A stretch of DNA of 37,967 nucleotides from Desulfobulbaceae bacterium (GTDB taxonomy: Bacteria; Desulfobacterota; Desulfobulbia; Desulfobulbales; UBA5123). Within the stretch, counting starts at the first letter, position 1; each line of letters begins with the position of its first letter. A program made the position numbers and the translations under genes. Of the stretch, positions 1-37,967 are shown in pieces. The notes under the pieces were generated by a model that saw only the letters and a list, made by a program, of their open reading frames with translations, ran no database searches and was not told the DNA's origin. The stretch covers positions 1 through 37,967 of the forward strand of contig JAOUHH010000002.1 of NCBI GenBank assembly GCA_029865195.1. Direction: 5' to 3'.

Positions 1-127
1 TTTCGTGGTGACCCCAAGGGGACTCGAACCCCTGTTACCGGCGTGAGAGGCCTATTGCATTACAATAATATCAGCCACTTATAGGCATCGTTACCACTCA
101 TTTACCATCTGACATGAACGGGAAACG
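1..127. repeat. Terminal direct repeat, copy 1 (identical to 37841-37967)
   Basis: Read base by base, tttcgtggtgaccccaagg...catgaacgggaaacg occurs at both window ends. It contains the tRNA fragment and the last 30 nt of int. Confidence 0.95.
6..52 (-). other. attP core: 3' ~47 nt of a tRNA-Glu(CUC) gene (fragment, not a functional tRNA)
   Basis: The reverse complement reads GGCCTCTCACGCCGGTAACAGGGGTTCGAGTCCCCTTGGGGTCACCA. This gives anticodon loop CUCUCAC (anticodon CUC), T-arm AGGGG/TTCGAGT/CCCCT, the acceptor 3' strand and CCA. It parallels the 3' half of E. coli tRNA-Glu. No D-arm or 5' acceptor strand follows. Confidence 0.75.
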
Positions 128-1234
128 ATCCTCAAACACCTCTCCGGATGCTTCGGTGTGGTCATAATGGTTGAGCATCCGCTCGTCCTCGTGGCCGGTT
201 CGATGGCGGGCCTGCCGCTTCTCAACCCCGAGATCCAGCAGCCTGGTGGTATAGGTGTGCCGGCTGTCATGTAGCCTCATTCCGACAATCCCGCACCGGC
301 GGAAGTGCCTGGCGATGGCCCTGGACACTGATGTCGGGGCGTATTGCGGCAGGATCGGCCCTTGTTCTCCCTTGCGAGGGGCCAATAGGTTGAAAAGCCT
401 CCCCCCAAGACCAACCCACCGCGCTACCCCGGTCTTTGTTTCGACCACCCTCAGCATCCGCTTGTCCCAGTCGATATTTTCTATTCTGGCATCCAGCGCC
501 TCTTTGCGGCGCAATCCACAACCAAGGAACATCAGCAGGTAAAGGGTCATGTGGCCCCCGAGGGCTGGTTGCGGAGTTGCGTCCGAGGCTGCGGCTACCT
601 CCAGCACCGTGGCAATCTGGTCATGTGTCAAGACCACATGGCGGATTTTCTCATCCTTCGGCACCCGCTCGCCCTTCAACATCGAGAATGGATCGCCAGC
701 CAACGCCCCGGTCGCCACCTGCAGCCTGAACATCCTCCGCAAGTCCTGCAGGTGTTTGTTGACCGTGGCGGCCTTTAGATGCTCTCCGCGCCTGACCGTT
801 GCAGCCCGAAGAGAGGCTTTCACGCGCTCGCCGTGCATGTGCCGGACTTCCCCTATTGGGGTGGAGGCGCCAAGTAGATCAACAACCCTGGCCACCCTCC
901 CCTCCCTGGCCTCCCTCTCCCCAGTGCTGATCCGCCCCCAGGTTTCGCGGTAATCATCGGCGGCCTGGGCCACCGTCTTTCTGCCATCACTCATCGCCAG
1001 CAATCGTTGAATGTCTACCAGGCTGACCAACCCCTCACGTTGCCACTCGGCCACCTCGTCGCTGGTGTATTGTTGGCGTCTGGTGCGCGACTCTACCACG
1101 TCGGCAAGTGCCCGCAGCGCCTTCGCTTCGCCAGCCCGATCGCACCGCCGCGACCGTTCGACAGCTGCGCCGGATGGAAGGTGGACGTAGTACCTGACCC
1201 GGTACTGCCCGTCTATCTTAGTTATTGAGGCCAT
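98..1234 (-). CDS. int: Tyrosine-recombinase phage integrase (378 aa)
   Basis: Catalytic pattern is present: GCGLRRKEAL (Arg), LHDSRHTYTTRLL (HxxR), GHEDERMLNHYDH (His and Tyr). The stop lies 45 bp from the tRNA-fragment core. Confidence 0.92.
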   Translation of the reverse strand: MASITKIDGQYRVRYYVHLPSGAAVERSRRCDRAGEAKALRALADVVESRTRRQQYTSDEVAEWQREGLVSLVDIQRLLAMSDGRKTVAQAADDYRETWGRISTGEREAREGRVARVVDLLGASTPIGEVRHMHGERVKASLRAATVRRGEHLKAATVNKHLQDLRRMFRLQVATGALAGDPFSMLKGERVPKDEKIRHVVLTHDQIATVLEVAAASDATPQPALGGHMTLYLLMFLGCGLRRKEALDARIENIDWDKRMLRVVETKTGVARWVGLGGRLFNLLAPRKGEQGPILPQYAPTSVSRAIARHFRRCGIVGMRLHDSRHTYTTRLLDLGVEKRQARHRTGHEDERMLNHYDHTEASGEVFEDRFPFMSDGK

Positions 1235-4265: not shown

Positions 4266-4472
4266 ATGGAGAGTTCAAACGAACGCAAAATTAGATCTTG
4301 GATCGTACTCGCTGGGGTAACCCAAACGGCAATTGCCGAATCGATTGGCGTCAAGCCGTCCAGCGTTAACGATGTGATCGCCGGTCGTCGCAAAACCAAG
4401 CGCATCCGCGAAGCCATCGCCAAGGCCATCAAGATGCCGGTTTCTGAAATCTGGCCGGCAAAGGCGGCTTAA
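4266..4472 (+). CDS. Ner/Cro-like small DNA-binding protein (68 aa)
   Basis: IRSWIVLAGVTQTAIAESIGVKPSSVNDVIAGRRKTKRIREAIAKAIKMPVSEIWP parallels Mu Ner-type HTH proteins, including the terminal EIWP. Sits in the position of cro. Confidence 0.8.
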   Translation: MESSNERKIRSWIVLAGVTQTAIAESIGVKPSSVNDVIAGRRKTKRIREAIAKAIKMPVSEIWPAKAA

Positions 4473-4795
4473 TTGTACCCGCCATTAACGTTTGTAATTT
4501 TGGGATGCTTATCTGGTCGCGGGTACACGCGCAACCTGTTGCCGCTTGAACAGTCAATAAAATAATAACCATCAGGAGTCATGGAGCCGACAGATATAAC
4601 CTCAAAGCAGTTCAAGCCGTATGTGTTTGTAGCATGCCAAGCTAAATCTGCTTTTGTGAGTCCGTAACTGGTGTTTGCAAGCCTCACATTGTTGTTATAC
4701 CCGGACTGGTCGGCCCTTGATGGTTCAGAATCAGATCTGCAAGAAGAAACAAAAATCAGCAACACAAAGAACAGTAGATTTTTTCTGTTTAACAT
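4469..4795 (-). CDS. Lipoprotein moron (108 aa), low-GC
   Basis: ATG at 4795 is preceded by GGGGGA. Signal peptide plus lipobox: MLNRKNLLFFVLLIFVSSC. The region is clearly AT-richer than its flanks. Its stop overlaps the stop of the Ner-like gene (TTAA). Confidence 0.75.
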   Translation of the reverse strand: MLNRKNLLFFVLLIFVSSCRSDSEPSRADQSGYNNNVRLANTSYGLTKADLAWHATNTYGLNCFEVISVGSMTPDGYYFIDCSSGNRLRVYPRPDKHPKITNVNGGYN

Positions 4796-7388: not shown

Positions 7389-8218
7389 TGTCATTTGCCA
7401 AACTCTACCGAGCCGGCTGGCAGCTCGCCGACGAACTGGAGCGCAACCGCCGCGCCGCCCGCCCGGAAACCTACCGCGGTGCGTTTGCCGACCTGTGTAT
7501 GCGGCTCGATAACTCCCCCACCAAGTCGGTGCCGTTCAACCCGCGCTACTGGGCAAAGGAATGGTGCTGGCACGATCAGGAAATTACACGGTTTTTCAGG
7601 AGGTTGGACGCTGCCGGGGTAATCAAAATAAAAGCGGCCGGCAACGTGCGCACTATAGTTGCGTCAAAAAACAATGTTAGCAGAGTTGTGAGCAAAACCG
7701 GCAACAAATGTGAGCAGCAAAGCCGCCCCACACAAGGGGAAAACAACAAGGTTGTGAGCTTGCGCCCCGACGAATGTGAGCAGAATGTTAGCATAGTTCC
7801 AACTACAGGCTTAAATCTGTCAGCTAACGCTGACTCGTCATCGGCTGCGCCGAATGACACCTGCCCTCACCAGGAGATTGTGAGGCTCTACCACGAGGTG
7901 CTGCCGGAGCTGCCCAAGGTGGTCAAGTGGACCCCGGCCAGGCAAAAGCTTCTCCGTGCCCGCTGGCGCGAGGACCAGAAACGCCAATCCATCGATGCCT
8001 GGCGCAAGTTTTTCGAGTTCGTCAAAAAGTCAGATTTTCTCATGGGCCGCGCCGGCAGTTTTCAGGCCAATCTAGAATGGCTCCTGCGGCCGTCAAACTT
8101 CGTCAAAATCCTTGAGCGGCAATACCACCGGCAGCAGGACCAGCAGCCACCACCAACCGCCGGGGCATCTGCCGCCGAGGAGACCCGGAAAAAATATCTG
8201 TCGGGTGGAGGGGTATGA
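7388..8218 (+). CDS. Replication initiator / helicase-recruiting protein with an internal origin
   Basis: Sits directly upstream of dnaB. The C-terminal block IVRLYHEVLPELPKVVKWTPARQKLLRARW..FLMGR..ANLEWLLRPSNFVKILE resembles the conserved phage replication C-terminus (Phg_2220_C/DnaD-like). The central section carries iterons. Confidence 0.7.
   Translation: MSFAKLYRAGWQLADELERNRRAARPETYRGAFADLCMRLDNSPTKSVPFNPRYWAKEWCWHDQEITRFFRRLDAAGVIKIKAAGNVRTIVASKNNVSRVVSKTGNKCEQQSRPTQGENNKVVSLRPDECEQNVSIVPTTGLNLSANADSSSAAPNDTCPHQEIVRLYHEVLPELPKVVKWTPARQKLLRARWREDQKRQSIDAWRKFFEFVKKSDFLMGRAGSFQANLEWLLRPSNFVKILERQYHRQQDQQPPPTAGASAAEETRKKYLSGGGV
7673..7793 (+). repeat. Six 10-bp iterons (RWTGTKAGCW): candidate replication origin inside the initiator gene
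   Basis: AATGTTAGCA 7673-7682, GTTGTGAGCA 7685-7694, AATGTGAGCA 7707-7716, GTTGTGAGCT 7751-7760, AATGTGAGCA 7773-7782, AATGTTAGCA 7784-7793. An AT-richer stretch lies at 7621-7672. Confidence 0.7.
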
Positions 8219-9531
8219 GCCAGCACCGCATCCCTCCCCAGAACATCGATGCCGAACGCGCCGTGCTGGCCGCGATGCTGCTTTCTCCTGCGGCCATGGA
8301 TGAGGTTGCCGACCGGCTGCGGCCGGAGGATTTCTATTCACATGAGCATGCGGCAATTTATGCCGCCGCCCTGGACCTCTACCGCTCCGACAAGCAGGTT
8401 GACCTGGTCACTGTCACCGATCGGCTGTCGATATCAGACAAGCTCGATGTTGCCGGCGGCCCGGCTTACCTGGCGGAACTCACCGACCAGATCCCGTCCA
8501 TGGCGGCACTCCCCCACCACGCCGAGCTGGTGCGCGACAAGGCGCGGTTGCGGGCGGCAATCGTCTCCCTCACCGAGGCCCACGAGCGCTGCTATGCCGC
8601 CTCGGACCCTGCCGACATCATCGACGAAATCGAAACCACCCTGCTCGCCATCGGCAGTTCCGCCACCCCCGACACCATGGCCCCTGCCTCCGTGCTGGCA
8701 AAGCGCTCGGTCGATGCCCTGGAACAGCGCTCCCGCCATGCCGGGGCACTGCTGGGACTCTCCACCGGCTTCCGCGAGCTGGACCAGATGACGTCAGGCC
8801 TCCAGCCAGCCGACCTGATCATCATCGCCGCCCGCCCCAGCATGGGCAAAACCTCACTGGCCATGAACATCGCCCGCCACGCCGCCGTCACCGTCAACAC
8901 CCCTACGGCGGTCTTCTCCATGGAGATGAGCAAGGAGCAGCTGGTGGACCGGATGATCTGCGACCTGGGCGAACTCAACACCTTTGCCTACCGCAACGGC
9001 CAACTGCTGGATCAACACTGGCCCCGGGTGCTGCCTGCCGCCGGAAAACTGGCACAGGCCCCGCTCTTTATCGACGACCAGGCAGGCCTCACCGCCATGG
9101 CCATCCGCGCCAGGGCAAGGCGCATCAAGGCCAAACACGGCCTGGGGCTCATCGTGGTCGACTACCTGCAGTTGATGGACGGCCGGGGCGAGCGGCGCGA
9201 GGCGGAAATCAGCGCCATAACCCGGGCGCTCAAGGCGCTGGCAAAGGAACTGCGGCTGCCGGTGGTGGTGCTCGCCCAGCTCAACCGGGAGCTTGAGCGC
9301 CGGCCGGACAAGCGGCCCAAACTCTCCGACCTGCGCGAGTCCGGCGCCATCGAGCAAGACGCCGATGTCATCCTCTTCATCTACCGCGACGAGGTTTATA
9401 ACCGCGCCAAAGATAACCCGCGCATCGGTATCGCCGAGATCATCATCGGCAAACAGCGCACCGGCCCCACCGGCACCATCGAACTGGCGTGGATGGAGCA
9501 CTTGAGCAGTTTTCGGGACATGAGGGGGTAA
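8215..9531 (+). CDS. dnaB: Replicative DNA helicase DnaB (438 aa)
   Basis: The N-terminal PPQNIDAERAVLAAML is a typical DnaB start. Walker A is AARPSMGKTSLAMN. Also has DYLQLM and the SGAIEQDADVILFIYRDEVY motif. Confidence 0.95.
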   Translation: MSQHRIPPQNIDAERAVLAAMLLSPAAMDEVADRLRPEDFYSHEHAAIYAAALDLYRSDKQVDLVTVTDRLSISDKLDVAGGPAYLAELTDQIPSMAALPHHAELVRDKARLRAAIVSLTEAHERCYAASDPADIIDEIETTLLAIGSSATPDTMAPASVLAKRSVDALEQRSRHAGALLGLSTGFRELDQMTSGLQPADLIIIAARPSMGKTSLAMNIARHAAVTVNTPTAVFSMEMSKEQLVDRMICDLGELNTFAYRNGQLLDQHWPRVLPAAGKLAQAPLFIDDQAGLTAMAIRARARRIKAKHGLGLIVVDYLQLMDGRGERREAEISAITRALKALAKELRLPVVVLAQLNRELERRPDKRPKLSDLRESGAIEQDADVILFIYRDEVYNRAKDNPRIGIAEIIIGKQRTGPTGTIELAWMEHLSSFRDMRG

Positions 9532-10044
9532 GTGATGACCGCACGGATGGAAAATACGGCATGGCGCGAGCTGGTTGCCTCCGGAATCGGGATAAATGAA
9601 ATGGCCAGGCTTACGGCGGTGAATGATTTTTTCAACCGCTTCTATTACGTGCCTGACGACCGGCATCACGGTCGCGATTACTGGGCAACCCCGGCTGAGT
9701 TTATGGAGTCCGGCGGCGGCGACTGCGAGGACTTTGCCATCGCTAAATACTTTGCGCTTCTGGATATGGGCGCGGATGCCAGCCATCTCTTTCTTACCTA
9801 TTGCCGGCTGCCGGCAACAGGCCAGGCACACATGGTCCTGGTGTACTGGTCCAAAGGGGATCAACCCCTGGTGCTCGACAACTTTATGCCGCAGGTTTTG
9901 TCAGCCTCGTATCGGCCGGATATTCTGCCGGTGTATTGCTTCAACAAAACACAAGGCTTTCTGCTGACCCCGCAATGGGGAATAGCGCATCCGCTGGATG
10001 TGCAGCAGTTGAGCAAGTGGCAAATGGTTTTGGGGAAGGTGTAA
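9532..10044 (+). CDS. Transglutaminase-like cysteine protease (BTLCP / LapG family), no signal peptide
   Basis: GGGDCEDFAIAKYFAL (Cys), GQAHMVLVYW (His) and PLVLDNF (Asp) match the BTLCP triad context. GTG at 9532 is followed by ATG at 9535. Confidence 0.75.
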   Translation: MMTARMENTAWRELVASGIGINEMARLTAVNDFFNRFYYVPDDRHHGRDYWATPAEFMESGGGDCEDFAIAKYFALLDMGADASHLFLTYCRLPATGQAHMVLVYWSKGDQPLVLDNFMPQVLSASYRPDILPVYCFNKTQGFLLTPQWGIAHPLDVQQLSKWQMVLGKV

Positions 10045-10389: not shown

Positions 10390-10597
10390 CTTCTTTATTG
10401 ATCAGCAGGTAGACAATGCCTACTAAACAAATCTGCCCAAACGCCTCGATTGCTGGAGTTCATTGCCCACGGCGTTGCGTGTTGCGCAGCGGCATGCGGC
10501 AGTGCCCTGCCGGATATGCGGATATGGTGTATTTGCTCGGCATGATTTTGTGGGTATTTGCGGCGCCGGCACGGAGAAGGCGCGGGGAGCGGTTGCC

Positions 10598-11221
10598 ATG
10601 AGGGGTTGCCGGCCACTTACCAGGGATGAGGTTGCAGCGGCTGTCGAAGCCATTCGCGGCCCGGCCGCCTCCAGGACCAAGGCGTTGCTGCTGGTCGGGA
10701 TCAATACCGGGTTCCGGATCTCCGAGTTGTTGGCGTTGACCGTTGGCGACGTGGTCACCAGTGCCGGAGAGATCACCCGGCGGGTGACAGTGGCCCGCCG
10801 CTGTATGAAGGGGCGGCACTCGTCCCGCACCGTGCTGATCAATTCGGCGGCCCGGGCGGCGCTGCTGCAATGGCTCTCGGTGCTTGCTGTTCGTGGCTAC
10901 ATCCACGCCACCGATACCTTGTGGCCGTCGTTCCGCACCGGCCGCGTCATCGGCAGGGTCCAGGCGTGGCGGTTGCTGGTGCGGGCTTTTGTGGCGGCCG
11001 GGCTTGACGGCCAGCTCGGAACCCATTGCCTGCGCAAGACCTTTGCCGCCAACGTCTACGACGAGTTGCTCGAAAGGGTGGCGATGGGCGAGCCGGTGGA
11101 CGCCTTCCGGGCGGTGTCGAAGCTGCTTGGCCATGCCGAAATCACTTCAACCGACAAGTATCTCTCGTTCCGCCTCGCCGAGCACGACGGCGTGGTCGAG
11201 CGGGCCGGGGTGGCGATATGA
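10598..11221 (+). CDS. Small catalytic-domain-only tyrosine recombinase (207 aa, FimB/FimE-sized)
   Basis: ATG at 10598 is preceded by GGGGAG. Motifs: NTGFRISELLAL (Arg), GTHCLRKTFA (HxxR), LLGHAEITSTDKYL (His and Tyr). No N-terminal SAM-like or arm-binding domain. Confidence 0.8.
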   Translation: MRGCRPLTRDEVAAAVEAIRGPAASRTKALLLVGINTGFRISELLALTVGDVVTSAGEITRRVTVARRCMKGRHSSRTVLINSAARAALLQWLSVLAVRGYIHATDTLWPSFRTGRVIGRVQAWRLLVRAFVAAGLDGQLGTHCLRKTFAANVYDELLERVAMGEPVDAFRAVSKLLGHAEITSTDKYLSFRLAEHDGVVERAGVAI

Positions 11222-11736: not shown

Positions 11737-11836
11737 TGACCAACGCTAAAAATCACGGGCGGCTTTAGCCGTCCGCGTGGATTGCAGGGTTAGCCGTTTT
11801 TGGCAATTTCAACGGGCTGCGAAGGGGGGGAAACAC

Positions 11837-12577
11837 ATGGGAAATTTTGTTGCCTCTTACGGAGGAGGAACAAACAGCACCGCTATGATTATTGAGTGGG
11901 TTGGCCGTGGGCGGCGCCTTGATGCCGTTGTTTTTGCCGACACAGGGGCAGAGAAACCGGAGACGTATTCCTTTGTGGCCCTGTTTTCTGCATGGCTCGT
12001 TGATCACGGATACCCACCAGTGGTGATTGTTCGAAATGACGGGATGCACGGCAGTCTTGAGCGCGAGTGCTTAACGAATGGTCGATTGCCGTCTGTCACG
12101 TTTGGATTTTCTTCCTGCTCCGACAAGTACAAATTGAGGCCGTTTCGCAAGTGGTTAAAGGCCTCTGGGCTGCAAAACGTGACGGTGCTACTCGGGTTTG
12201 ACGCTGGAGAGCCTGGACGGAAATCGAGGGCGTTAAAATATGCCAGTGGGTACGACAAGATTTTCCCGCTGATAGAGTGGCAATGGGGCCGGGCGCGGTG
12301 CATTGAGGCCATAGACCGATCTGGCCTGCCACGGCCAGGGAAGAGCGCCTGCTTTTTTTGCCCGAACACGAAACCGCACGAAATTTTAGCATTGCAGGAC
12401 AACCATCCGGATCTGATTGAGCGGGCTATTGCTCTGGAGAGCAACGCCGAACTCAGGAGCATAAAGGGCCTGGGGCGGGCGTGGTCATGGAAGGATTTTG
12501 TTTGTGCCGATGACGCTCAACAAAGGATGTTTGGCAGCGTTTGCATGGGGCAACCATGTGGATGCTACGACGGCTAA
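11837..12577 (+). CDS. PP-loop ATP-pyrophosphatase / PAPS-reductase-family protein (246 aa)
   Basis: ATG at 11837 follows GAAGGGGGGG. PP-loop SYGGGTNSTAM (SGGxDS-like). C-terminal Cys cluster CFFCPN...CMGQPCGC. Confidence 0.75.
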   Translation: MGNFVASYGGGTNSTAMIIEWVGRGRRLDAVVFADTGAEKPETYSFVALFSAWLVDHGYPPVVIVRNDGMHGSLERECLTNGRLPSVTFGFSSCSDKYKLRPFRKWLKASGLQNVTVLLGFDAGEPGRKSRALKYASGYDKIFPLIEWQWGRARCIEAIDRSGLPRPGKSACFFCPNTKPHEILALQDNHPDLIERAIALESNAELRSIKGLGRAWSWKDFVCADDAQQRMFGSVCMGQPCGCYDG

Positions 12578-12645
12578 CAAACAATCTACCGCAAATCTGC
12601 AGTATAGCGCGGCAGCAGATAAGCCTTAACCTGGAGGAGAACGCC

Positions 12646-13677
12646 ATGGAAAACAACGCCTTGCACGACAAATCAGTTGTTCGCGTTGCCGGTAAAGGTC
12701 GCAGGGACGACCATCCGCGCATCAAGGCGTTGCGGGCTGCTTGTCGGCTGCAGCATTTTTCTCCTCGCACCGAGGTTTGCTACGCATCATGGGTGTGGCA
12801 GTACATGCTTTTTTACTGGTCGCGCCAGGATCTTTCCGGCCAGCCGGCGGCCGAGGTGATTACCGCGTTTCTCACCGAGCTGGCCGAGCGGCGCCAGGTG
12901 GCGGCCTCCACCCAGAACCAGGCGCTCAACGCGGTGGTGTTTCTTTACAAGCATGTGATCCAGGTGGATGTGGGCGATTTCTCCCGGTTCGTGCGGGCCA
13001 AGCGGCCGCGCAACCTGCCGGTGGTCTTTTCTCGGGATGAGGCGCTGCGGGTTATCTCGCTCCTGCCTGAGCCTTACGCGCTCATGGGGGCCCTACTCTA
13101 CGGCTCCGGCCTGCGGCTCATGGAGTGCTGCCGGTTGCGGGTCAAGGATCTGGACTTTGACCGCTCCGCCATCCTGGTCAAGTTCGGCAAGGGCGCCAAA
13201 GACCGAATGGTGCCGATGCCATCAGTCACCGTCGACCGGTTGCGCTCCCAGGTGGCCCGAGCCTCTGCCCTGCTTGCCGACGATCTGGCCCACGGCTTCG
13301 AGGGCGCAACCATGGAGCCGGCCCTGGCCCGCAAGTATCGCCGGGCCGGCAAGGAGGCTGGCTGGCAGTATGTGTTCCCGGCCTCGCGGTTGTGCGTGGA
13401 CCGGGAGACTGGTTGCTTTTACCGCCACCACCTGCACGATTCCGCCCTGCAGCGCGAGGTCAAGCGGGCGGTGCGGCGCGCCGGGGTCAACAAGGCGGCC
13501 TCTTGCCACTCGTTCCGCCATTCGTTTGCCACCCACCTGCTCGAAAGCGGGGTGGACATTCGCACCGTGCAGGATCTCCTGGGGCACAAGGACATTTCAA
13601 CAACCCAGGTCTACCTCCACGTCATGCGCCGCGGCGCCGGGGTGGTGAGCCCCATGGACATGGGAGGCGTCGCATGA
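12646..13677 (+). CDS. intI: Integron-type integrase (IntI-like tyrosine recombinase, 343 aa)
   Basis: ATG at 12646 follows GGAGGAG. By-eye collinearity with IntI1: GKGAKDR; the IntI-specific insert ALARKYRRAGKEAGWQYVFPAS...YRHHLHDS; CHSFRHSFATHLL; DIRTVQDLLGHKDISTTQVYLHV. All catalytic residues are present. Confidence 0.8.
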   Translation: MENNALHDKSVVRVAGKGRRDDHPRIKALRAACRLQHFSPRTEVCYASWVWQYMLFYWSRQDLSGQPAAEVITAFLTELAERRQVAASTQNQALNAVVFLYKHVIQVDVGDFSRFVRAKRPRNLPVVFSRDEALRVISLLPEPYALMGALLYGSGLRLMECCRLRVKDLDFDRSAILVKFGKGAKDRMVPMPSVTVDRLRSQVARASALLADDLAHGFEGATMEPALARKYRRAGKEAGWQYVFPASRLCVDRETGCFYRHHLHDSALQREVKRAVRRAGVNKAASCHSFRHSFATHLLESGVDIRTVQDLLGHKDISTTQVYLHVMRRGAGVVSPMDMGGVA

Positions 13678-14039: not shown

Positions 14040-14206
14040 ACGTAGCTACATTTCCGATCAGTAATTTGAGCAAAAAACACACATTGACGGTCTCCATTAC
14101 CGTCACCAGGCGCTTCAGGCTGCGCATGTGGTTGGCAACAAAATTGATGTGCCTGGCTGCTGTTGTCCTCGGATGCAACATCGACATCGTTAAAAAGGCT
14201 GCATGA
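14036..14206 (+). CDS. Small hydrophobic-tailed protein (56 aa)
   Basis: ATGA overlaps at both ends (HNH and TerS). Lower GC. C-terminal segment LMCLAAVVLGC. Confidence 0.45.
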   Translation: MNVATFPISNLSKKHTLTVSITVTRRFRLRMWLATKLMCLAAVVLGCNIDIVKKAA

Positions 14207-33341: not shown

Positions 33342-35573
33342 ATGGGTACCAATTTTCATACCGCTCCAACCACCGCAACCAAGTGGAAGCCGGCCGATGT
33401 TGAGGCGTTTCTCTCCACCCTGGACCAGGCCATCACCTACGGCAAGAACGTGATTGTTCATTGTGACGGGCTGGTGACCTACAACAAGACCGGGAAATTG
33501 GCCTGGGCCTCGACGCTGCGGATCACCTTTAACCGGGCGGATGGCAAGGCGGTGCAGAACACGGTGGCGGCCGGCTCCATCACCCTGGCCGACGGGGAGT
33601 TCGCCTATCTTGACCTGAACGAGACCGACGCCACGGCGCTGACCATGGCCAAGGCAGCGGTTACCACCGGGGCGGCCAGCAATTTTATCGCCTACAACCG
33701 GCTGGTCCTGGGGTACCGCAACGCGGCATCGGATGAGTTTTTTCCGGTTAACCTGCATCTGGCCATCGAGCCGGGGTTTAACGACGATTTCGACGAAGAT
33801 CCGGTCACCACCACCGGGTTGACCTGGGGGTATAAGGCGGGACTGTTCCGTAACGACAACGCGGTTTACAGCAAGGCCGCCGGGACGGTGGCGCTCACCG
33901 ACGCCGCCACCAACTACGTGGAGATCGATGTCTCCACCCAGACCCTGGTGAAGAACACCACCGGGTTTACCGCCGGTGATATCCCGATCCGGGAGGTTGT
34001 GTGCGCAGGCGGGGCGCAGACCGGCAGCGCGGATAAGCGGACGGCGCTGAATGTGGGCGGTGCTGGCGGGGCATCGACCTTTCTAGGCCTGACCGACACC
34101 CCGGGGAGTTACGCCGGCCAGGCCGGCAAGGTTCCGGTGGTAAACACTGGGGAAACGGCGCTTGAGTTTGTGGGTGTTCCCAGTGCCGTCGCCAAGGCTT
34201 ACCCGGATTTCCTGACCTCGGCAAAGGCTGCGGCCGACTCCGGCGACGACGAGTTTGCTGCAGCATCGCTCACCGGCTGGACGGCGGTGGCTGGTTCTTC
34301 CGGCACTGTCAACTTTTTGGGCGCCGCCGATGTCGGCATCTATGACCTGGCCACCCGGGCCGGCACGTTGTTGATCCAGGCCCGGAACAACAACGTGCAG
34401 CTCCGCAAGGACTTCGAGATCCCGGACGGGGCTTGCGAGATCATGCCGGTGAGTTTGACGGCGCTGTTAGAGTCCACCGGCAGCGGGGTCGGGATCGCCG
34501 ACAATGAGCTGAACATCGGCCTCTACCTCAACGACAACGACATCTCGCCCACCAGCGGTAATTATGCAGCCCTGTTGATGGACTGCGCCGCTTCGGCAAT
34601 CCAGCTGCTGGCCATCGACAACACCAGCCAGCGCGGCACCACCGGCGTTACCACCGACGTGCTCAATGTGCCGCTGGGGCAAACGGTGTTTTTGCGGATA
34701 ACCCGCAGCGGCACCACCTACTACTACCATTACAGCCTGGACGGCCGGGGCTGGGTGGCCATGGGCAAGAGCGCCATCGGCTCGGCGCTGACCAACATCT
34801 GGATCGGCGTGACCGCCTCGGCCGGTTTTACCGACCCGGTGCCCATCATCTCGATCCCCTGGGTGCGCCAGGGGTTGAGCAGCCTCGACCCTTGGCCGTG
34901 GACTGCGGCCAGCGAGGCGCTGCTGGCGCCGCTCAATTTCAACGCCCGCACCGGCGGCGCCTTTGGCGCCCTGGACAGCTACAACACCACCGGCATGGCC
35001 AATGGTCAGCCGGCGCAGGTGAGAGATTCGCTGGGGGTGCATGACTACCGCTTCAACTCCACCTCGACGGACACAGAGGACGGATTGTTGCGGGTGGCTC
35101 CTGATACCGGCAGCGGCCGGTGGCATCTGGTGGGGACGACTACTCATATCGGTGCTCTTGTTTCCAAGGTAAGTGCTAATCAATCAATTACCATTGGAAC
35201 ATTCACCCCTGTAACATTCAACACCGAGAATGAAGATGTTGGGGGATTTTGGGTCGTCGGTTCTCCATCAAGACTTACAATACCAAAAGGTGTAACCCGT
35301 GTGAAGATGGAGGCAAACGTTGCATGGGCAACCGGGGGAACAGCCTATGTGATAATGACTATATACAAGAATGGGACGGCCTTATCTCCAACACCGTGGC
35401 AACGAGATTATGCAGTTGGAGAGGACGAGCACAACATCTCGACATATGAAATACCTGTAGTGGCCGGAGACTATCTTGAGTTAGTAGTGTATGTGACAGT
35501 AACAAAAAATGTTGTTGGGTCTGCCGCCCCAACCAGAACATGGATGTCAATAAACGCAATTGAATTTGCCTAG
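33342..35573 (+). CDS. Tail fibre / receptor-binding protein (743 aa) with a low-GC C-terminal knob
   Basis: Conserved fibre motif FLGLTDTPGSYAGQAGKVPVVNTGETALEF. The last ~135 aa are encoded by visibly AT-richer DNA (about 35150-35573). Confidence 0.8.
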   Translation: MGTNFHTAPTTATKWKPADVEAFLSTLDQAITYGKNVIVHCDGLVTYNKTGKLAWASTLRITFNRADGKAVQNTVAAGSITLADGEFAYLDLNETDATALTMAKAAVTTGAASNFIAYNRLVLGYRNAASDEFFPVNLHLAIEPGFNDDFDEDPVTTTGLTWGYKAGLFRNDNAVYSKAAGTVALTDAATNYVEIDVSTQTLVKNTTGFTAGDIPIREVVCAGGAQTGSADKRTALNVGGAGGASTFLGLTDTPGSYAGQAGKVPVVNTGETALEFVGVPSAVAKAYPDFLTSAKAAADSGDDEFAAASLTGWTAVAGSSGTVNFLGAADVGIYDLATRAGTLLIQARNNNVQLRKDFEIPDGACEIMPVSLTALLESTGSGVGIADNELNIGLYLNDNDISPTSGNYAALLMDCAASAIQLLAIDNTSQRGTTGVTTDVLNVPLGQTVFLRITRSGTTYYYHYSLDGRGWVAMGKSAIGSALTNIWIGVTASAGFTDPVPIISIPWVRQGLSSLDPWPWTAASEALLAPLNFNARTGGAFGALDSYNTTGMANGQPAQVRDSLGVHDYRFNSTSTDTEDGLLRVAPDTGSGRWHLVGTTTHIGALVSKVSANQSITIGTFTPVTFNTENEDVGGFWVVGSPSRLTIPKGVTRVKMEANVAWATGGTAYVIMTIYKNGTALSPTPWQRDYAVGEDEHNISTYEIPVVAGDYLELVVYVTVTKNVVGSAAPTRTWMSINAIEFA

Positions 35574-35605: not shown

Positions 35606-36037
35606 ATGGACAAGATACAGATGGTCATCGCTGCAATAGGCCTGTTGTTGGCCATCATCACCGCCGGTGGCGGCTACCTGGGCGGCCGGTTCCACGCCGC
35701 CAGAAAGGCCGGGGCGGCCCAGGCTTTGAGCGAGGCGGCGGTGGCGAGGCTTGGCGAGCTGGTCGCCCGGGTTGACACCACGGTTTTTGACGCCGACCGG
35801 CTGCCACGGTTCGTCACCCGCACCGATTGCGACCAGTCGAAAAGAGACTATCGGACCAGGGTGTGTGCAAAGCTCGACGACATCAAGGGCGACCTGGCCA
35901 CCAAGCATCTTGAGATCACCGGAGCGCTCTCGTCGCACCACCAGGAGAACGGCGAGGCGTTTAAGCGGTTGTTTGACTGGCAGCTCGGGATAGAGAAGCG
36001 AGTGGGCGGACTGGAGGCTAAAAACGAGGGAGGGTGA
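35606..36037 (+). CDS. N-terminally anchored coiled-coil protein (i-spanin-like or holin-associated)
   Basis: AAAGGAG SD upstream. TM segment MVIAAIGLLLAIITAGGGYL, then a charged helical region. Confidence 0.6.
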   Translation: MDKIQMVIAAIGLLLAIITAGGGYLGGRFHAARKAGAAQALSEAAVARLGELVARVDTTVFDADRLPRFVTRTDCDQSKRDYRTRVCAKLDDIKGDLATKHLEITGALSSHHQENGEAFKRLFDWQLGIEKRVGGLEAKNEGG

Positions 36038-36041
36038 CGCC

Positions 36042-36266
36042 ATGTTTAAGCTGGTGCGGGACACGGACCGATGTGTGCAATGCGGCAACTGCGACATCCT
36101 GAGCCGCCCGACGGCTCTGCCCGGCTACCTGACGCCACGGCTGATGCGGGAGAGCAGCTCGGTGCTAATCTCCCCGGCCAGCCTGGAGACGCACCGCGGC
36201 CGGATCGAGACGGCAATCGAGCGCTGCCACATGGAGGCGCTGAGTTTGGAGGGGGTGGAGGGATGA
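36042..36266 (+). CDS. Hypothetical protein (74 aa) with a CxxCxxC motif
   Basis: CVQCGNCD motif. ATGA overlap with the downstream peptidase gene. Confidence 0.5.
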   Translation: MFKLVRDTDRCVQCGNCDILSRPTALPGYLTPRLMRESSSVLISPASLETHRGRIETAIERCHMEALSLEGVEG

Positions 36267-36661
36267 TATCGCCAACCGGCAAGACCAGTGTGCGGAGCGA
36301 CTCGAAGGGCGACGGGCACTACGGGTCTCCCCGTGGTGCCAGGATGCACGACGGCACCGATTATCCGTGCATACCAGGGCAGCAGGTGGTGGCGCCAATT
36401 GCCGGCACGGTGTCGCGCGAGGCTGTGCCGTATGCCGATGACCCAAAATACCGCGGCCTGGTCATCCAGGGCAAACACGCCCGGGTGAAGCTGTTTTACC
36501 TGCTGCCGGCTAAGGGGATTGTCGGCAAAAGCGTTGCCGAAGGGCAGGTAATAGGCACGGCCCAGGACATCTCGGCCAAGTACGGCAAGGAGATGACGCC
36601 ACACATCCACCTGCAGGTGGAGAGCTACGACCCGGAGTTGCTGATCGGATATCCAGGGTGA
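36263..36661 (+). CDS. M23-family metallopeptidase (likely endolysin, 132 aa)
   Basis: ATG at 36263 follows GGAGGG. HDGTDY (HxxxD) and PHIHLQV (HxH) are LytM/M23 signatures. Confidence 0.85.
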   Translation: MISPTGKTSVRSDSKGDGHYGSPRGARMHDGTDYPCIPGQQVVAPIAGTVSREAVPYADDPKYRGLVIQGKHARVKLFYLLPAKGIVGKSVAEGQVIGTAQDISAKYGKEMTPHIHLQVESYDPELLIGYPG

Positions 36662-37413
36662 CCCTGCGTTGTCATGGCGGCTGCTGCGAGCTGTGCGCCG
36701 ATGATGTCTGGGAAGAGTGCCACCCGGGAGGGTGGGAGACAAGAGGGGGTGGGGGTGTGAACGAGATATCACGCTGTGCGACGTTGTCGTTGCTTGCTTA
36801 CAGCCATGCCAATTACTCGGTGGCATCCACCTCCACCCAGGCTATTGCCGTTGACGGGGCGCTCGCTTTTCGCGGCACCCATGAGTTGGCCGACTGGCTC
36901 ACCGATGCCGATTGCCGCTTGGTGGCGGCTCCGTTCGGCATGGTGCATGCCGGGTTCTGGCGGGCGTATCAGTCAATTGCGCCACTGCTGCCGGCGGCCG
37001 AGGTGATAACCGGCCATTCCCTCGGCGGGGCGCTGGCCCTGCTGTGCGGACTCGACCGGCTGCACCGGGGTGAGGACGTGCGGGTGGTCACCTTTGGCCA
37101 GCCTCGGGCTTTGGGCCTCTGCACCGCTCAGGCCATGCGCCACCGGTTTGGCGACTGGGTGACGCGGTGCGTGCACAACAATGACGTGGTGCCAAGGGTG
37201 CCCACCAGGCTGATGGGTTACGGCCACATGGGCCGGCTGGTGTATTTTGACCGTCACGGCCTGCACCGCCCCGGCATTACCTGGTCGGAGCTTTTGCGCG
37301 ACCGGGTGGCCGGCAGGATAGAGGCAGTTTTGGAGCGTGGCACCGACGGCATCCGCGACCACGACCTGGCGCGTTACGCCTGGTGCGCGGCCAGGATGGA
37401 GGCAAGGTCATGA
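36658..37413 (+). CDS. Class-3 lipase / alpha-beta hydrolase
   Basis: Nucleophile elbow ITGHSLGGALALL, then VVTFGQPR and NNDVVPRVP (Asp), with a later His. The start may instead be the GTG at 36757, preceded by AGAGGGGG. Confidence 0.8.
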   Translation: MTLRCHGGCCELCADDVWEECHPGGWETRGGGGVNEISRCATLSLLAYSHANYSVASTSTQAIAVDGALAFRGTHELADWLTDADCRLVAAPFGMVHAGFWRAYQSIAPLLPAAEVITGHSLGGALALLCGLDRLHRGEDVRVVTFGQPRALGLCTAQAMRHRFGDWVTRCVHNNDVVPRVPTRLMGYGHMGRLVYFDRHGLHRPGITWSELLRDRVAGRIEAVLERGTDGIRDHDLARYAWCAARMEARS

Positions 37414-37481
37414 GTTGCCCGCAATGCGGCAGCCAGTGGGACGGGAGGCACTGCCCTGCCTGCGGCTACGAGGAGTGCTGA
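37410..37481 (+). CDS. 23-aa zinc-ribbon mini-ORF
   Basis: ATGA overlap with the lipase stop. MSCPQCGSQWDGRHCPACGYEEC has two CxxC pairs. Confidence 0.4.
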   Translation: MSCPQCGSQWDGRHCPACGYEEC

Positions 37482-37532
37482 AACTGATAAGCCTCCGCGG
37501 GCCGGAGGCGCAGATGATAAAGAGGTGTATCC

Positions 37533-37700
37533 ATGATTGATTGGTTGCTCAACCACTGGCAGGACATCTTGACCGCCATCTCCGGCGTGGTGACCGCAGC
37601 AAGCATTATCGTGAAGCTCACCCCAACCCCTGCCGACGACGCGGCCCTGGCCAGGGTGTTGCGGCTGCTCGACCTGCTGGCGCTGAACCCTAAACGGTGA
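37533..37700 (+). CDS. Small single-TM protein (55 aa), holin-like candidate
   Basis: AAGAGG lies 8 nt upstream. TM segment ILTAISGVVTAASIIV, then TPTPADDAALARVLRLLDLLALN, a motif I recall from small phage membrane proteins. Confidence 0.6.
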   Translation: MIDWLLNHWQDILTAISGVVTAASIIVKLTPTPADDAALARVLRLLDLLALNPKR

Positions 37701-37766: not shown

Positions 37767-37799
37767 GCCCAAAAACAGCCAATCAACCCACAAAAAAGA

Positions 37800-37835
37800 A
37801 GAGGGAAACCAACCGCAACAGGCTGATTTCCCTCT
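37800..37835 (-). terminator. Hairpin terminator immediately downstream of the tRNA fragment (possibly bidirectional)
   Basis: AGAGGGAAA (37800-37808) pairs with TTTCCCTCT (37827-37835), with an 18-nt loop. The minus strand continues TCTTTTTT and the plus strand continues ATTATTTT. Confidence 0.5.
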
Positions 37836-37840
37836 ATTAT

Positions 37841-37967
37841 TTTCGTGGTGACCCCAAGGGGACTCGAACCCCTGTTACCGGCGTGAGAGGCCTATTGCAT
37901 TACAATAATATCAGCCACTTATAGGCATCGTTACCACTCATTTACCATCTGACATGAACGGGAAACG
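37841..37967. repeat. Terminal direct repeat, copy 2 (identical to 1-127)
   Basis: Same 127-nt string as the window start. A length of 127 equals a common maximal assembler k-mer. Confidence 0.95.
37846..37892 (-). other. Second (overlap) copy of the tRNA-Glu 3' fragment / attP core
   Basis: Identical to 6-52 because it lies inside the terminal overlap. Confidence 0.75.

Follow-up and report, generated by a model that had tools for sequence, protein, structure and literature searches.

A class-3 lipase gene coupled to an M23 peptidase gene in the late operon of a temperate siphophage: a candidate accessory lysis esterase

The window analysed here, a 37,967-nucleotide (nt) stretch of contig JAOUHH010000002.1 from an assembly labelled Desulfobulbaceae bacterium, comes from a sediment metagenome and represents, in linearised form, a circular genome of ~37.84 kb. 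By its gene layout, this genome is that of a temperate siphophage. Its late genes end in a block of six open reading frames (ORFs) that follow the tail-fibre gene and include an M23 peptidase gene whose end overlaps the start of a class-3 lipase gene. The lipase is proposed to be a holin-dependent accessory lysis esterase in a late-operon lysis module, a reading judged to have an even chance of being correct; that the enzyme also stands in for a spanin is much less likely. The assignment of the lipase as a lysis gene draws on its GTGA overlap with the M23 gene, the lack of a promoter or terminator of its own, its phage-like GC content at third codon positions (GC3), its position, and its invariant catalytic triad. 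It is further supported by the absence of any other lysis gene among the scanned genes, by the holin-type neighbours that relatives of the M23 protein have elsewhere, by the Amidase_3 gene that directly precedes relatives of a 55-amino-acid (aa) protein, by the enrichment of small membrane proteins beside related viral lipases, and by the precedents of mycobacteriophage LysB and of a Tle2-type lipase.

A late-operon block with a coupled lipase gene

All six ORFs that a sequence-only reading had listed after the fibre gene, spanning 35606-37700, are present (Table 1). That reading had counted four ATGA- or GTGA-coupled junctions, and three of them stand as 4-nt overlaps (ATGA at 36263, GTGA at 36658, and ATGA at 37410); the junction between the 143-aa and 74-aa genes is instead a 4-nt gap. 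Wider gaps separate the fibre gene from the 143-aa gene (32 nt, with an AAAGGAG ribosome-binding site) and the 23-aa ORF from the 55-aa gene (51 nt). A potential hairpin in the latter gap is no more stable than shuffled sequence (z 0.49) and was rejected.

On the + strand, no terminator-like site was found from position 34688 up to the hairpin that closes the late operon, and no promoter-like or terminator-like site was found inside the block or flanking the lipase gene. The block is part of the late transcript, and the first terminator comes downstream of the 55-aa gene. The GC3 of the six ORFs (0.77-0.85) falls within that of the structural genes (0.73-0.90), from which a PAPS-reductase-like gene elsewhere in the genome stands out (0.58). 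No other lysis gene is recognisable upstream of the terminase genes or in PHROG scans of 20 other ORFs, making the block the sole candidate lysis module among the scanned genes of this genome. Its earlier description as a lysis module is supported by this status and by its place within the late transcript. None of the six products has a match in PADLOC, a search of NCBIfam gave nothing significant, and Rfam gave no match.

The lipase matches Pfam Lipase_3 with 86.2 bits against a cut-off of 22, and the PHROGs esterase/lipase family phrog_21992 at 3.2e-23. Lipase_3 alone passes in Pfam, with no cutinase match. The catalytic triad, previously described as intact, consists of Ser121 in GHSLG, Asp176 in NNDVVPRVP, and the histidine of a DH pair, His235, and all three residues are invariant in an 18-sequence alignment (A1). 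The GTG start codon of the gene overlaps the M23 stop codon, and the protein carries no export signal. Its GC3 of 0.79 resembles that of the phage genes, with 0.67 for the 99-nt N-terminal extension alone, and the composition of the gene is fully ameliorated. A second in-frame GTG begins the catalytic core. Starting there would yield a short form like those of the phage lipases P0002 and P0008, making two isoforms possible.

A divergent contig from a wetland metagenome retains the order of 74-aa gene, M23-like gene, and lipase gene. Its M23-like part is a stretch of 427 nt that is less than 80% identical to the window, after which similarity resumes at 36667, reaching 95.6% identity over 36667-36824. 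Base changes in this contig preserve the reading frames of both the 74-aa gene and the lipase gene, and since both order and frames are kept, the arrangement reflects more than chance. Of the five listed changes, three are synonymous in the lipase frame and two conservative (D>E, R>K), whereas in each of the remaining frames non-conservative substitutions would result from all except one or two of them. Because these changes keep the lipase frame, the N-terminal extension is probably translated and the GTGA coupling to the M23 gene is real. The extension is probably under purifying selection and likely coding, and the gene order survives exchange of the M23 allele. Over the 74-aa gene, the contig is ~90% identical, its frame is kept by compensating indels, and the change in the codon for Cys11 is synonymous; this preservation indicates that the 143-aa and 74-aa genes are, in that sense, real.

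One further sequence, a low-depth contig (X3) from an unrelated run labelled 'fungus metagenome', matches 37216-37469, over the 3' end of the lipase gene, and carries 12 clustered G>A changes within 37382-37428. At a depth of 2, these changes are treated as damage or artefact and not as a true variant.

Table 1. Features of the window discussed in the text (positions count from the first letter of the window).
Feature	Position	Strand	Description
143-aa protein	35606-36037	+	single N-terminal hydrophobic segment
74-aa protein	36042-36266	+	C11xxC14xxC17...C62
M23 peptidase, 132 aa	36263-36661	+	Peptidase_M23, E 5.7e-9
Class-3 lipase, 251 aa	36658-37413	+	Lipase_3, E 2.5e-24
Lipase N-terminal extension, 33 aa	36658-36756	+	Cys/His-rich: C5, H6, C9, C10, C13, C21, H22
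Lipase catalytic core	36757-37413	+	
Second possible lipase start	GTG 36757	+	behind strong GAGGGGG ribosome-binding site
Lipase catalytic codons	Ser121 37018-37020; Asp176 37183-37185; His235 37360-37362	+	
23-aa micro-ORF	37410-37481	+	CPQC...CPAC
55-aa single-transmembrane protein	37533-37700	+	phrog_9685, 8.9e-10
Terminator-like hairpin, bidirectional	37792-37843	.	23-nt inverted repeat between A and T runs; closes late operon
Tail fibre / tail protein, 743 aa	33342-35573	+	phrog_11660 tail protein, 1.6e-11
Tyrosine integrase	98-1234	-	PF00589
attP region	37841-37967 / 1-127		carries 3' part of tRNA-Glu-like gene on - strand, beside integrase
Terminal repeat	37841-37967	.	exact 127-nt copy of window positions 1-127

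The partner products and the search for spanins

The M23 protein matches PF01551 with 36.5 bits against a cut-off of 28.7, and in PHROGs it matches endolysin and metallo-endopeptidase families. It has no signal peptide, and its ATG overlaps the stop codon of the 74-aa gene. It is a probable endolysin. The family to which it belongs is small, with 38 clusters in 5.8 billion proteins; its members are ~130 aa long, none has a signal peptide, and all but one are without a source name or annotated as hypothetical, two generic automated peptidase labels aside. The HxxxD (H29, D33) and HxH (H114, H116) motifs are invariant in 33 aligned family sequences. The second catalytic histidine of LytM and lysostaphin (in the YxHL motif; H328 in lysostaphin) is missing, and profile alignments to LytU and lysostaphin place L81 (FYLLPAK) at this position. 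The same histidine is absent from the vertebrate protein LECT2, which has been described as a degenerate M23 fold without a catalytic histidine (PMC9662197). The label M23 metallopeptidase is accordingly sound as to family, and the canonical active site is incomplete by one catalytic histidine. Catalytic competence of the protein would follow from gene context and not from a complete canonical site.

Structural comparisons also place this protein near LECT2. A model of the M23 protein (predicted local distance difference test, pLDDT, 96) has human LECT2 (5b0h) as its best PDB match, with a template-modelling score of 0.80, compared with ~0.6 for LytM, lysostaphin, and EnpA; the LytM domains of EnvC and DipM are also matched. 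Among solved proteins, the family profile matches LECT2 with an E-value of 8.7e-24 and bacterial M23 proteins with 7e-6 or worse, and the window protein on its own matches LECT2 at 6.8e-11. No microbial or viral protein seen here is closer to vertebrate LECT2 than this M23 family (window protein and loci L012-L014, L095-L107).

Relatives of the M23 gene occur in an endolysin context. On L012, a 42.7-kb viral contig, the relative follows giant virion proteins and precedes a GTA_holin_3TM gene. On L107, which encodes a relative 83% identical to the window protein, the gene is preceded by a 77-aa gene and a gene read as tail-assembly-chaperone-like, and is followed, with an overlapping start, by a hydrophobic unannotated protein. 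This protein was considered as a GTA_holin_3TM member and rejected, having no Pfam match and no significant BLAST match to the L012 holin. On L013, the genes ahead of the relative encode a 78-aa transmembrane (TM) protein, a 137-aa product, and a hydrophobic one of 75 aa. A genome scan with a 12-sequence M23 alignment (A3) as query yielded 12 further loci in metagenome-assembled genomes (MAGs), mostly labelled as diderm lineages (Pseudomonadota, Desulfobulbia, Ignavibacteria, Thermodesulfovibrionales, Saprospiraceae, and others). These labels are the sole hint at the envelope of the host, in which a need for outer-membrane disruption would be expected.

The 55-aa protein has, as described from the sequence, one TM segment (residues 12-30); it carries a KLTPTPADD motif and is the last product of the late operon. 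It belongs to a large phage family, phrog_9685, without an assigned function, and has at least 268 relatives in IMG/VR. In loci L110 and L112, a 173-aa Amidase_3 gene (Pfam 1.5e-12) comes after the tail genes, and 7 nt beyond it begins a homologue that ends the operon, as the 55-aa gene does in the window. This placement directly after an Amidase_3 endolysin makes the 55-aa protein a probable holin, which is the simplest reading. Homologues in two phage groups are flanked by lipoprotein genes, located just upstream in L109 (4724-4987) and just downstream in the L114-L188 group (5164-5484 in L116), many contigs of which are ~37 kb. This suggests a two-gene unit of 55-aa homologue and lipoprotein that the window does not have.

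The 143-aa protein is hydrophobic at residues 4-22, and its C-terminal part is mostly charged or helical, with two cysteines. An exhaustive HMMER search of 1.84 billion representative proteins returned only the protein itself at E<=0.001, and no relative was found in IMG/VR. It has no Pfam match, and its match to the Rz-like family phrog_1026 is weak (E 0.026) and limited to the N-terminus. One K/R residue precedes the TM segment and three follow it. By the positive-inside rule, this distribution predicts an N-out/C-in protein with a cytoplasmic C-domain, the opposite of an i-spanin, and it weakens the i-spanin-like topology proposed earlier for this putative coiled-coil protein. Possible roles are those of holin partner, antiholin, or lysis regulator. 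A BLASTP comparison with a 120-aa protein that precedes the lipase gene in locus L008 aligned the TM segment only (E 0.035) and was discounted. Comparison by hhalign of the 143-aa, L008 120-aa, and 55-aa proteins with neighbour families of marine viral lipases gave nothing convincing, the best result being 21% probability for the 55-aa protein against a family designated 'plus1'.

The 74-aa protein carries the CxxCxxC motif that had been noted, C11xxC14xxC17, together with C62 in the context "AIERCHMEAL". The motif resembles that of single-cluster ferredoxins, and Fer4_2 and Fer4 match only residues 4-17, below cut-off (E 0.007-0.01, or 0.007-0.05 over all matches of the Fer4 type). No homologue other than the protein itself was found in a search of 5.8 billion proteins, and a single-sequence AlphaFold model is uninformative (pLDDT 48). 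The ATG of the 23-aa ORF overlaps the lipase stop codon, and its product has several sub-threshold Pfam matches to zinc ribbons. Two further lineages of phage lipases (L028/L037 and L039/L042) also have a CxxC...CxxC mini-ORF over the lipase stop codon. Such zinc-ribbon mini-ORFs are found at the lipase stop in 5 of 79 loci, compared with 1.1% at random positions, and this recurrence lends some support to an uncertain gene. Three Cys-motif elements (the lipase N-terminal extension, the 74-aa protein, and the 23-aa ORF) gather around the two enzymes. That lysis might be under metal or redox control through these elements is only a guess.

No lipoprotein o-spanin, embedded or adjacent, was reported in the sequence-only reading, and a scan for a signal segment plus lipobox from every start codon in all six frames of the window agrees, finding none in 33-38 kb. 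The scan also found no ORF in the window with the unimolecular spanin architecture of an N-terminal lipobox and a C-terminal TM segment in one protein. A proline-rich ORF embedded at 35751-35993 was rejected as an Rz1-like candidate, since it lacks both a hydrophobic signal segment and a proper lipobox. A tiny lipobox candidate at 14126-14206 would leave just nine mature residues. The sole convincing lipoprotein of the window is a 108-aa protein (MLNRKNLLFFVLLIFVSSC...) whose gene (4469-4795, -) lies close to that of the repressor, in the 1-kb stretch of lowest GC (0.50) in the lysogeny region. It has no PHROG, PADLOC, or NCBIfam match. It was rejected as an o-spanin for its opposite strand, its place in a lysogeny region 31 kb away, and its low-GC surroundings, and it could be a superinfection-exclusion lipoprotein. 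No small cationic peptide was found in the block.

Related lipases and competing explanations

A homology search with the lipase finds 1097 relatives at E<=0.001, most of them annotated as "lipase family proteins" and encoded on the chromosomes of marine and sediment bacteria. These chromosomal relatives have an extra N-terminal segment of ~40 aa that is not in the phage versions. The closest solved relatives in a PDB profile search are fungal class-3 lipases (4e-35), followed by a feruloyl esterase and a plant phospholipase A1. One cellular homologue, P0010 (loci L005-L007), is encoded divergently beside a 4567-aa protein with RHS, cadherin, and He_PIG repeats, beyond which lie small unannotated genes; this neighbourhood resembles a polymorphic-toxin locus. 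In cultured phages, a tblastn search with the lipase gave nothing at 1e-5, and weak matches at E<=1 in BgManors32, P-SSM2/5, XacN1, Xoo-sp13, SCTP-2, and Cylindrospermopsis phages.

Viral contigs offer a richer comparison. At least 537 stretches in IMG/VR encode related lipases, and the loci analysed here are the best 80 of them. In many AT-rich contigs, the lipase gene lies within a cluster of genes for small membrane proteins. The most constant neighbour of the viral lipases is a family of 83-114-aa proteins with a TM segment and a ...WRKKYP...KKIDELE helix, present in 33 of the 80 loci, usually immediately downstream of the lipase (L016, L017, L025, L040, L047, L050, L062, L072, L076, L080, and others). 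It has no PHROG or Pfam match and might act in lysis or as a partner of the lipase. A 50-67-aa single-TM protein is present in 23 of the 80 loci. In at least 14 of the 80, genes for an Rz-like i-spanin (phrog_739, 2.8e-16) and for an Rz1-like lipoprotein (phrog_812, 7.4e-9) are present together within 6 kb, and the lipase occurs with spanins and holin-like genes in at least four different gene orders. In an internal control over the 52 loci left after dereplication at 80% lipase identity, small TM proteins account for 26.5% of genes at offsets of one or two from the lipase and for 13.5% at offsets of five or more (odds ratio 2.3, Fisher p 1.7e-4), with ORF calls that are crude and loci that are not phylogenetically independent.

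These loci also bear on the earlier suggestion that the lipase replaces spanin function, which is not supported. Since a lipase and an Rz/Rz1-like pair are found together in at least 14 of the 80 viral loci, both functions coexist there, and since the fetched M23-family loci are all without a lipase, the lipase appears to be an optional add-on. The M23-family loci outside the window, which do without a lipase, also show no convincing lipobox ORF near the M23 gene, and nothing ties the enzyme specifically to the outer membrane. The lipase, M23, and 55-aa families occur together in this genome only, among all fetched loci, and the cassette combines, as a mosaic, modules that are individually associated with lysis in other settings.

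In the proposed mechanism, the 55-aa protein would act as the holin, possibly with the 143-aa membrane ORFan, and would permeabilise the inner membrane at the end of the late phase. The two signal-less cytoplasmic enzymes, made from coupled frames in a fixed ratio, would thereby reach the periplasm. There, the LECT2-like M23 zinc peptidase would cut peptidoglycan cross-links, and the lipase, through Ser121, Asp176, and His235, would hydrolyse ester-linked acyl chains of envelope lipids from the periplasmic side. Its likely targets would be phospholipids of the inner leaflet of the outer membrane and/or the diacylglyceryl anchors of lipoproteins. Such hydrolysis would weaken the outer membrane, making lysis faster or more complete. 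A broader proposal, which appears quite unlikely, is that class-3 lipases are an overlooked class of holin-gated lysis esterases of diderm phages that dismantle outer-membrane lipids or lipoprotein anchors, as enzymatic counterparts of LysB beyond the mycolata, and that the lipase is the sole outer-membrane disruptor here, coupled to the M23 protein and possibly under the control of the Cys-motif elements.

Several observations weigh against an accessory role in lysis. The lipase family is mainly cellular and without an assigned function, and its substrate is not predictable from sequence (the nearest solved proteins being fungal triacylglycerol lipases). No lipase is found in the fetched loci of the M23 family, including the 12 MAG loci, or in those of the 55-aa family. 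The M23 protein itself is without one canonical catalytic histidine, like the non-enzymatic LECT2. The dependence among the loci behind the neighbour enrichment counts here as well, as do six viral loci (L024, L031, L041, L064, L081, L090) in which the lipase gene is surrounded by genes of the opposite strand and has no neighbour that encodes a membrane protein. In the temperate siphophage of L008-L010, a gene for a 222-aa lipase, preceded by and overlapping that of the 120-aa protein with an N-terminal TM segment and a helical tail, ends the strand of tail genes right before the lysogeny module, which is a classic cargo site.

This last position leads to a serious, if unlikely, alternative, in which the lipase is cargo (a moron, lysogenic-conversion, or auxiliary lipid-metabolism gene) at the att-proximal end of the late operon and lysis is the work of the M23 protein and membrane proteins. 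The lipase gene of the window lies near attP, a common site for cargo, just as the L008-L010 gene is the last of the late strand before the integrase module; relatives are mostly chromosomal genes of marine and sediment bacteria, the cultured phages with class-3 lipases are cyanophages and jumbo phages in which the gene is simply annotated 'lipase', and loci of the M23 and 55-aa families elsewhere have no such gene. Against this, the start codon of the lipase gene overlaps the M23 stop codon, the gene has no promoter or terminator of its own, and it is placed between the endolysin gene and that of the probable holin, not after them or past the operon. Its GC3 is fully ameliorated, within the phage range, the divergent wetland relative keeps the arrangement despite an M23 allele less than 80% identical, and small membrane proteins and spanins are enriched beside phage lipases. 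An accessory lysis role for the lipase would also be reduced to that of a minor helper, at most, if the outer membrane were disrupted by a product that escapes recognition (the 143-aa protein with a host or unrecognised partner, or the 55-aa protein) or if no disruptor were needed, which is unlikely. Recognisable spanins are missing from about 13% of phages of Gram-negative hosts, and topologies of other kinds can be envisaged (PMC6139136); phage phiKT uses a peptide 'disruptin' instead (bioRxiv 10.1101/515445), and together these cases make an alternative device plausible. The 143-aa and 74-aa products are ORFans, as fast-evolving lysis genes often are, 55-aa homologues often adjoin lipoprotein genes, and the other M23-family loci manage with neither a lipase nor a convincing lipobox ORF near the M23 gene. 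The block itself, though, contains no lipoprotein, unimolecular spanin architecture, or small cationic peptide, the charges of the 143-aa protein predict a cytoplasmic C-domain, and outer-membrane activity is not positively assigned to any other product.

The remaining alternatives concern the enzymes themselves. It is very unlikely that the M23 protein is a degenerate, non-hydrolytic binder of the LECT2 type, or an activator of host amidases in the manner of EnvC and NlpD, leaving the lipase as the main catalytic weapon. The YxHL histidine is missing exactly as in LECT2, the degenerate M23 fold cited above, LECT2 is the nearest structure, and the LytM domains of EnvC and DipM are matched too; the family nevertheless occupies the endolysin position beside holin-type genes, and no other muralytic gene was found among the scanned genes. 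Highly improbable is an origin of the M23 protein and the lipase as virion-associated entry enzymes, or as an antibacterial toxin or defence pair. Both genes come directly after tail-fibre genes, some phages use M23 domains as virion-associated lysins (PMC9662197), and a cellular lipase homologue adjoins a giant RHS-repeat protein. On the other side, each product is small, consists of a single domain, and carries no structural or tail-attachment domain, small membrane proteins flank the pair, and the genes examined include no PADLOC defence match and no type VI secretion system (T6SS) or immunity genes. The preferred reading remains that of an accessory lysis esterase released by the holin.

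Genome setting and comparison with known systems

The exact 127-nt repeat at the two ends of the window marks the assembly overlap of a circular genome. It coincides with the attP region, and the tRNA piece alone is common to many other contigs of the source run (depth 202, compared with 35). A lysogeny module with a CI-type repressor leads into replication genes (an O-like initiator and an ORF read as a DnaB-type helicase), followed by two further recombinases, a PAPS-reductase-like gene, an HNH gene, and the terminase genes TerS and TerL. The stretch at 17.0-20.3 kb has the size and position expected of portal, protease, and capsid genes, after which come connector genes, the tape measure, large tail proteins, and the fibre. 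TerL has no exact protein match on record, a DNA search of cultured phages with 33-38 kb of the window gave no match, and a genome scan with the 1235-aa tail protein gave pattern matches only, with no relatives.

Several genes outside the late block are of interest in their own right. Immediately 5' of the HNH and TerS genes lies a gene for a full-length integron integrase (12541-13677, +; NCBIfam TIGR02249, E 7.5e-116, 386.9 bits against a cut-off of 265), and no attC-like sites were found near it by a crude RYYYAAC...GTTRRRY regular expression. Together with the attP integrase (98-1234) and a third tyrosine recombinase at 10463-11221 (phrog_216, 2.3e-29), the genome encodes three recombinases. 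The PAPS-reductase-like gene (11777-12577, +; phrog_424, 7e-35; GC3 0.58) lies between two recombinase genes and is probably a recent acquisition. A 170-aa transglutaminase-like cysteine proteinase of the Peptidase_C93/BTLCP family (9532-10044, +; Pfam 2.7e-12), unusual in a phage replication module, is encoded directly 3' of the helicase-like ORF at 8215-9531.

Lysis of Gram-negative hosts is taught as a three-step process of holin, endolysin, and spanin. Spanins, such as lambda Rz/Rz1 and T1 gp11, carry out the final step in diderm hosts, and their genes lie beside those of related lipases on many marine viral contigs. They act by membrane fusion and are non-enzymatic. In the window, no lipobox ORF of the embedded, overlapped, separated, or unimolecular kind was found in 33-38 kb, and the only N-anchored protein has a predicted topology opposite to that of an i-spanin. 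The disruptin of phiKT, gp28, is the only spanin alternative described in the papers found and offers a likeness as an alternative outer-membrane disruption device in a spanin-less phage. It is a small cationic antimicrobial peptide, however, and the candidate in the window is a 27-kDa serine hydrolase.

Other class-3 lipases provide a different set of comparisons. Those of P-SSM2/5, XacN1, Xoo-sp13, BgManors32, and Cr-LKS4, along with phrog_21992, belong to the same Pfam family as the window lipase. The cultured-phage enzymes share 28-36% identity with it over partial coverage and are encoded in large virulent genomes, and no lysis role for them was found in the literature. A lipid esterase had been called unfamiliar in Gram-negative phage lysis, and in line with this no paper was found that links a class-3 lipase to it, in a limited search that is no proof of absence. 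Among T6SS effectors, Vibrio cholerae TseL carries a class-3 lipase domain. Tle2/TseL effectors are, like the window lipase, GxSxG lipases with a Ser-Asp-His triad, and by analogy their behaviour may be instructive, as they damage membranes only from the periplasm, with a Tle2-type lipase being toxic to Escherichia coli only if periplasm-targeted (PMC9927574). They differ in being much larger, delivered through the T6SS and VgrG, and paired with a periplasmic immunity protein; ORF and family scans of the window revealed no VgrG, PAAR, T6SS, or periplasmic immunity genes.

The M23 protein resembles LECT2 in its M23 fold, its HxxxD and HxH motifs, its length of ~130 aa, and the missing YxHL histidine. 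In vertebrates, LECT2 is secreted, serves in signalling, and is regarded as non-enzymatic, whereas the M23 protein is a phage product at the endolysin position. The family may shed light on where LECT2 came from and on whether hydrolysis is possible for M23 folds without the second catalytic histidine.

The closest functional parallel is LysB of mycobacteriophages (D29 gp12 and Ms6 LysB), which is, like the window lipase, a Ser-Asp-His alpha/beta-hydrolase esterase encoded beside an endolysin and without an export signal. LysB acts enzymatically on the mycobacterial outer membrane, attacking the outer lipid layer after the peptidoglycan is breached, and it improves lysis without being strictly essential (PMC6116114); by analogy, the window lipase may act at the same stage. 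LysB is cutinase-like (PMC6116114), and the window lipase belongs to Pfam Lipase_3. The LysB substrate is the mycolyl-arabinogalactan ester of mycolata, and relatives of the window M23 protein occur mostly in MAGs labelled as diderm lineages, which do not have that layer; the host is apparently an ordinary diderm. By this comparison, the block would work like a LysB-containing cassette while lying outside the LysB family. Nor does it qualify as a spanin system, given the outcome of the lipobox scan, or as a T6SS effector locus.

If true, an esterase hard-wired to an endolysin would provide a second, enzymatic route through the outer membrane and would carry the principle of LysB over to phages of hosts other than mycobacteria. 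In contrast to spanins, such an enzyme could in principle be added externally, which is relevant to endolysin-based antibacterials. Related lipases keep spanin-like and holin-like company in many uncultured marine phages, making the question a general one and not that of a single genome. Backed by this broader metagenomic pattern, the block represents a hypothesis that can be tested heterologously and a lead for a lipid-cutting lysis helper, comparable to LysB, in phages of double-membraned hosts.

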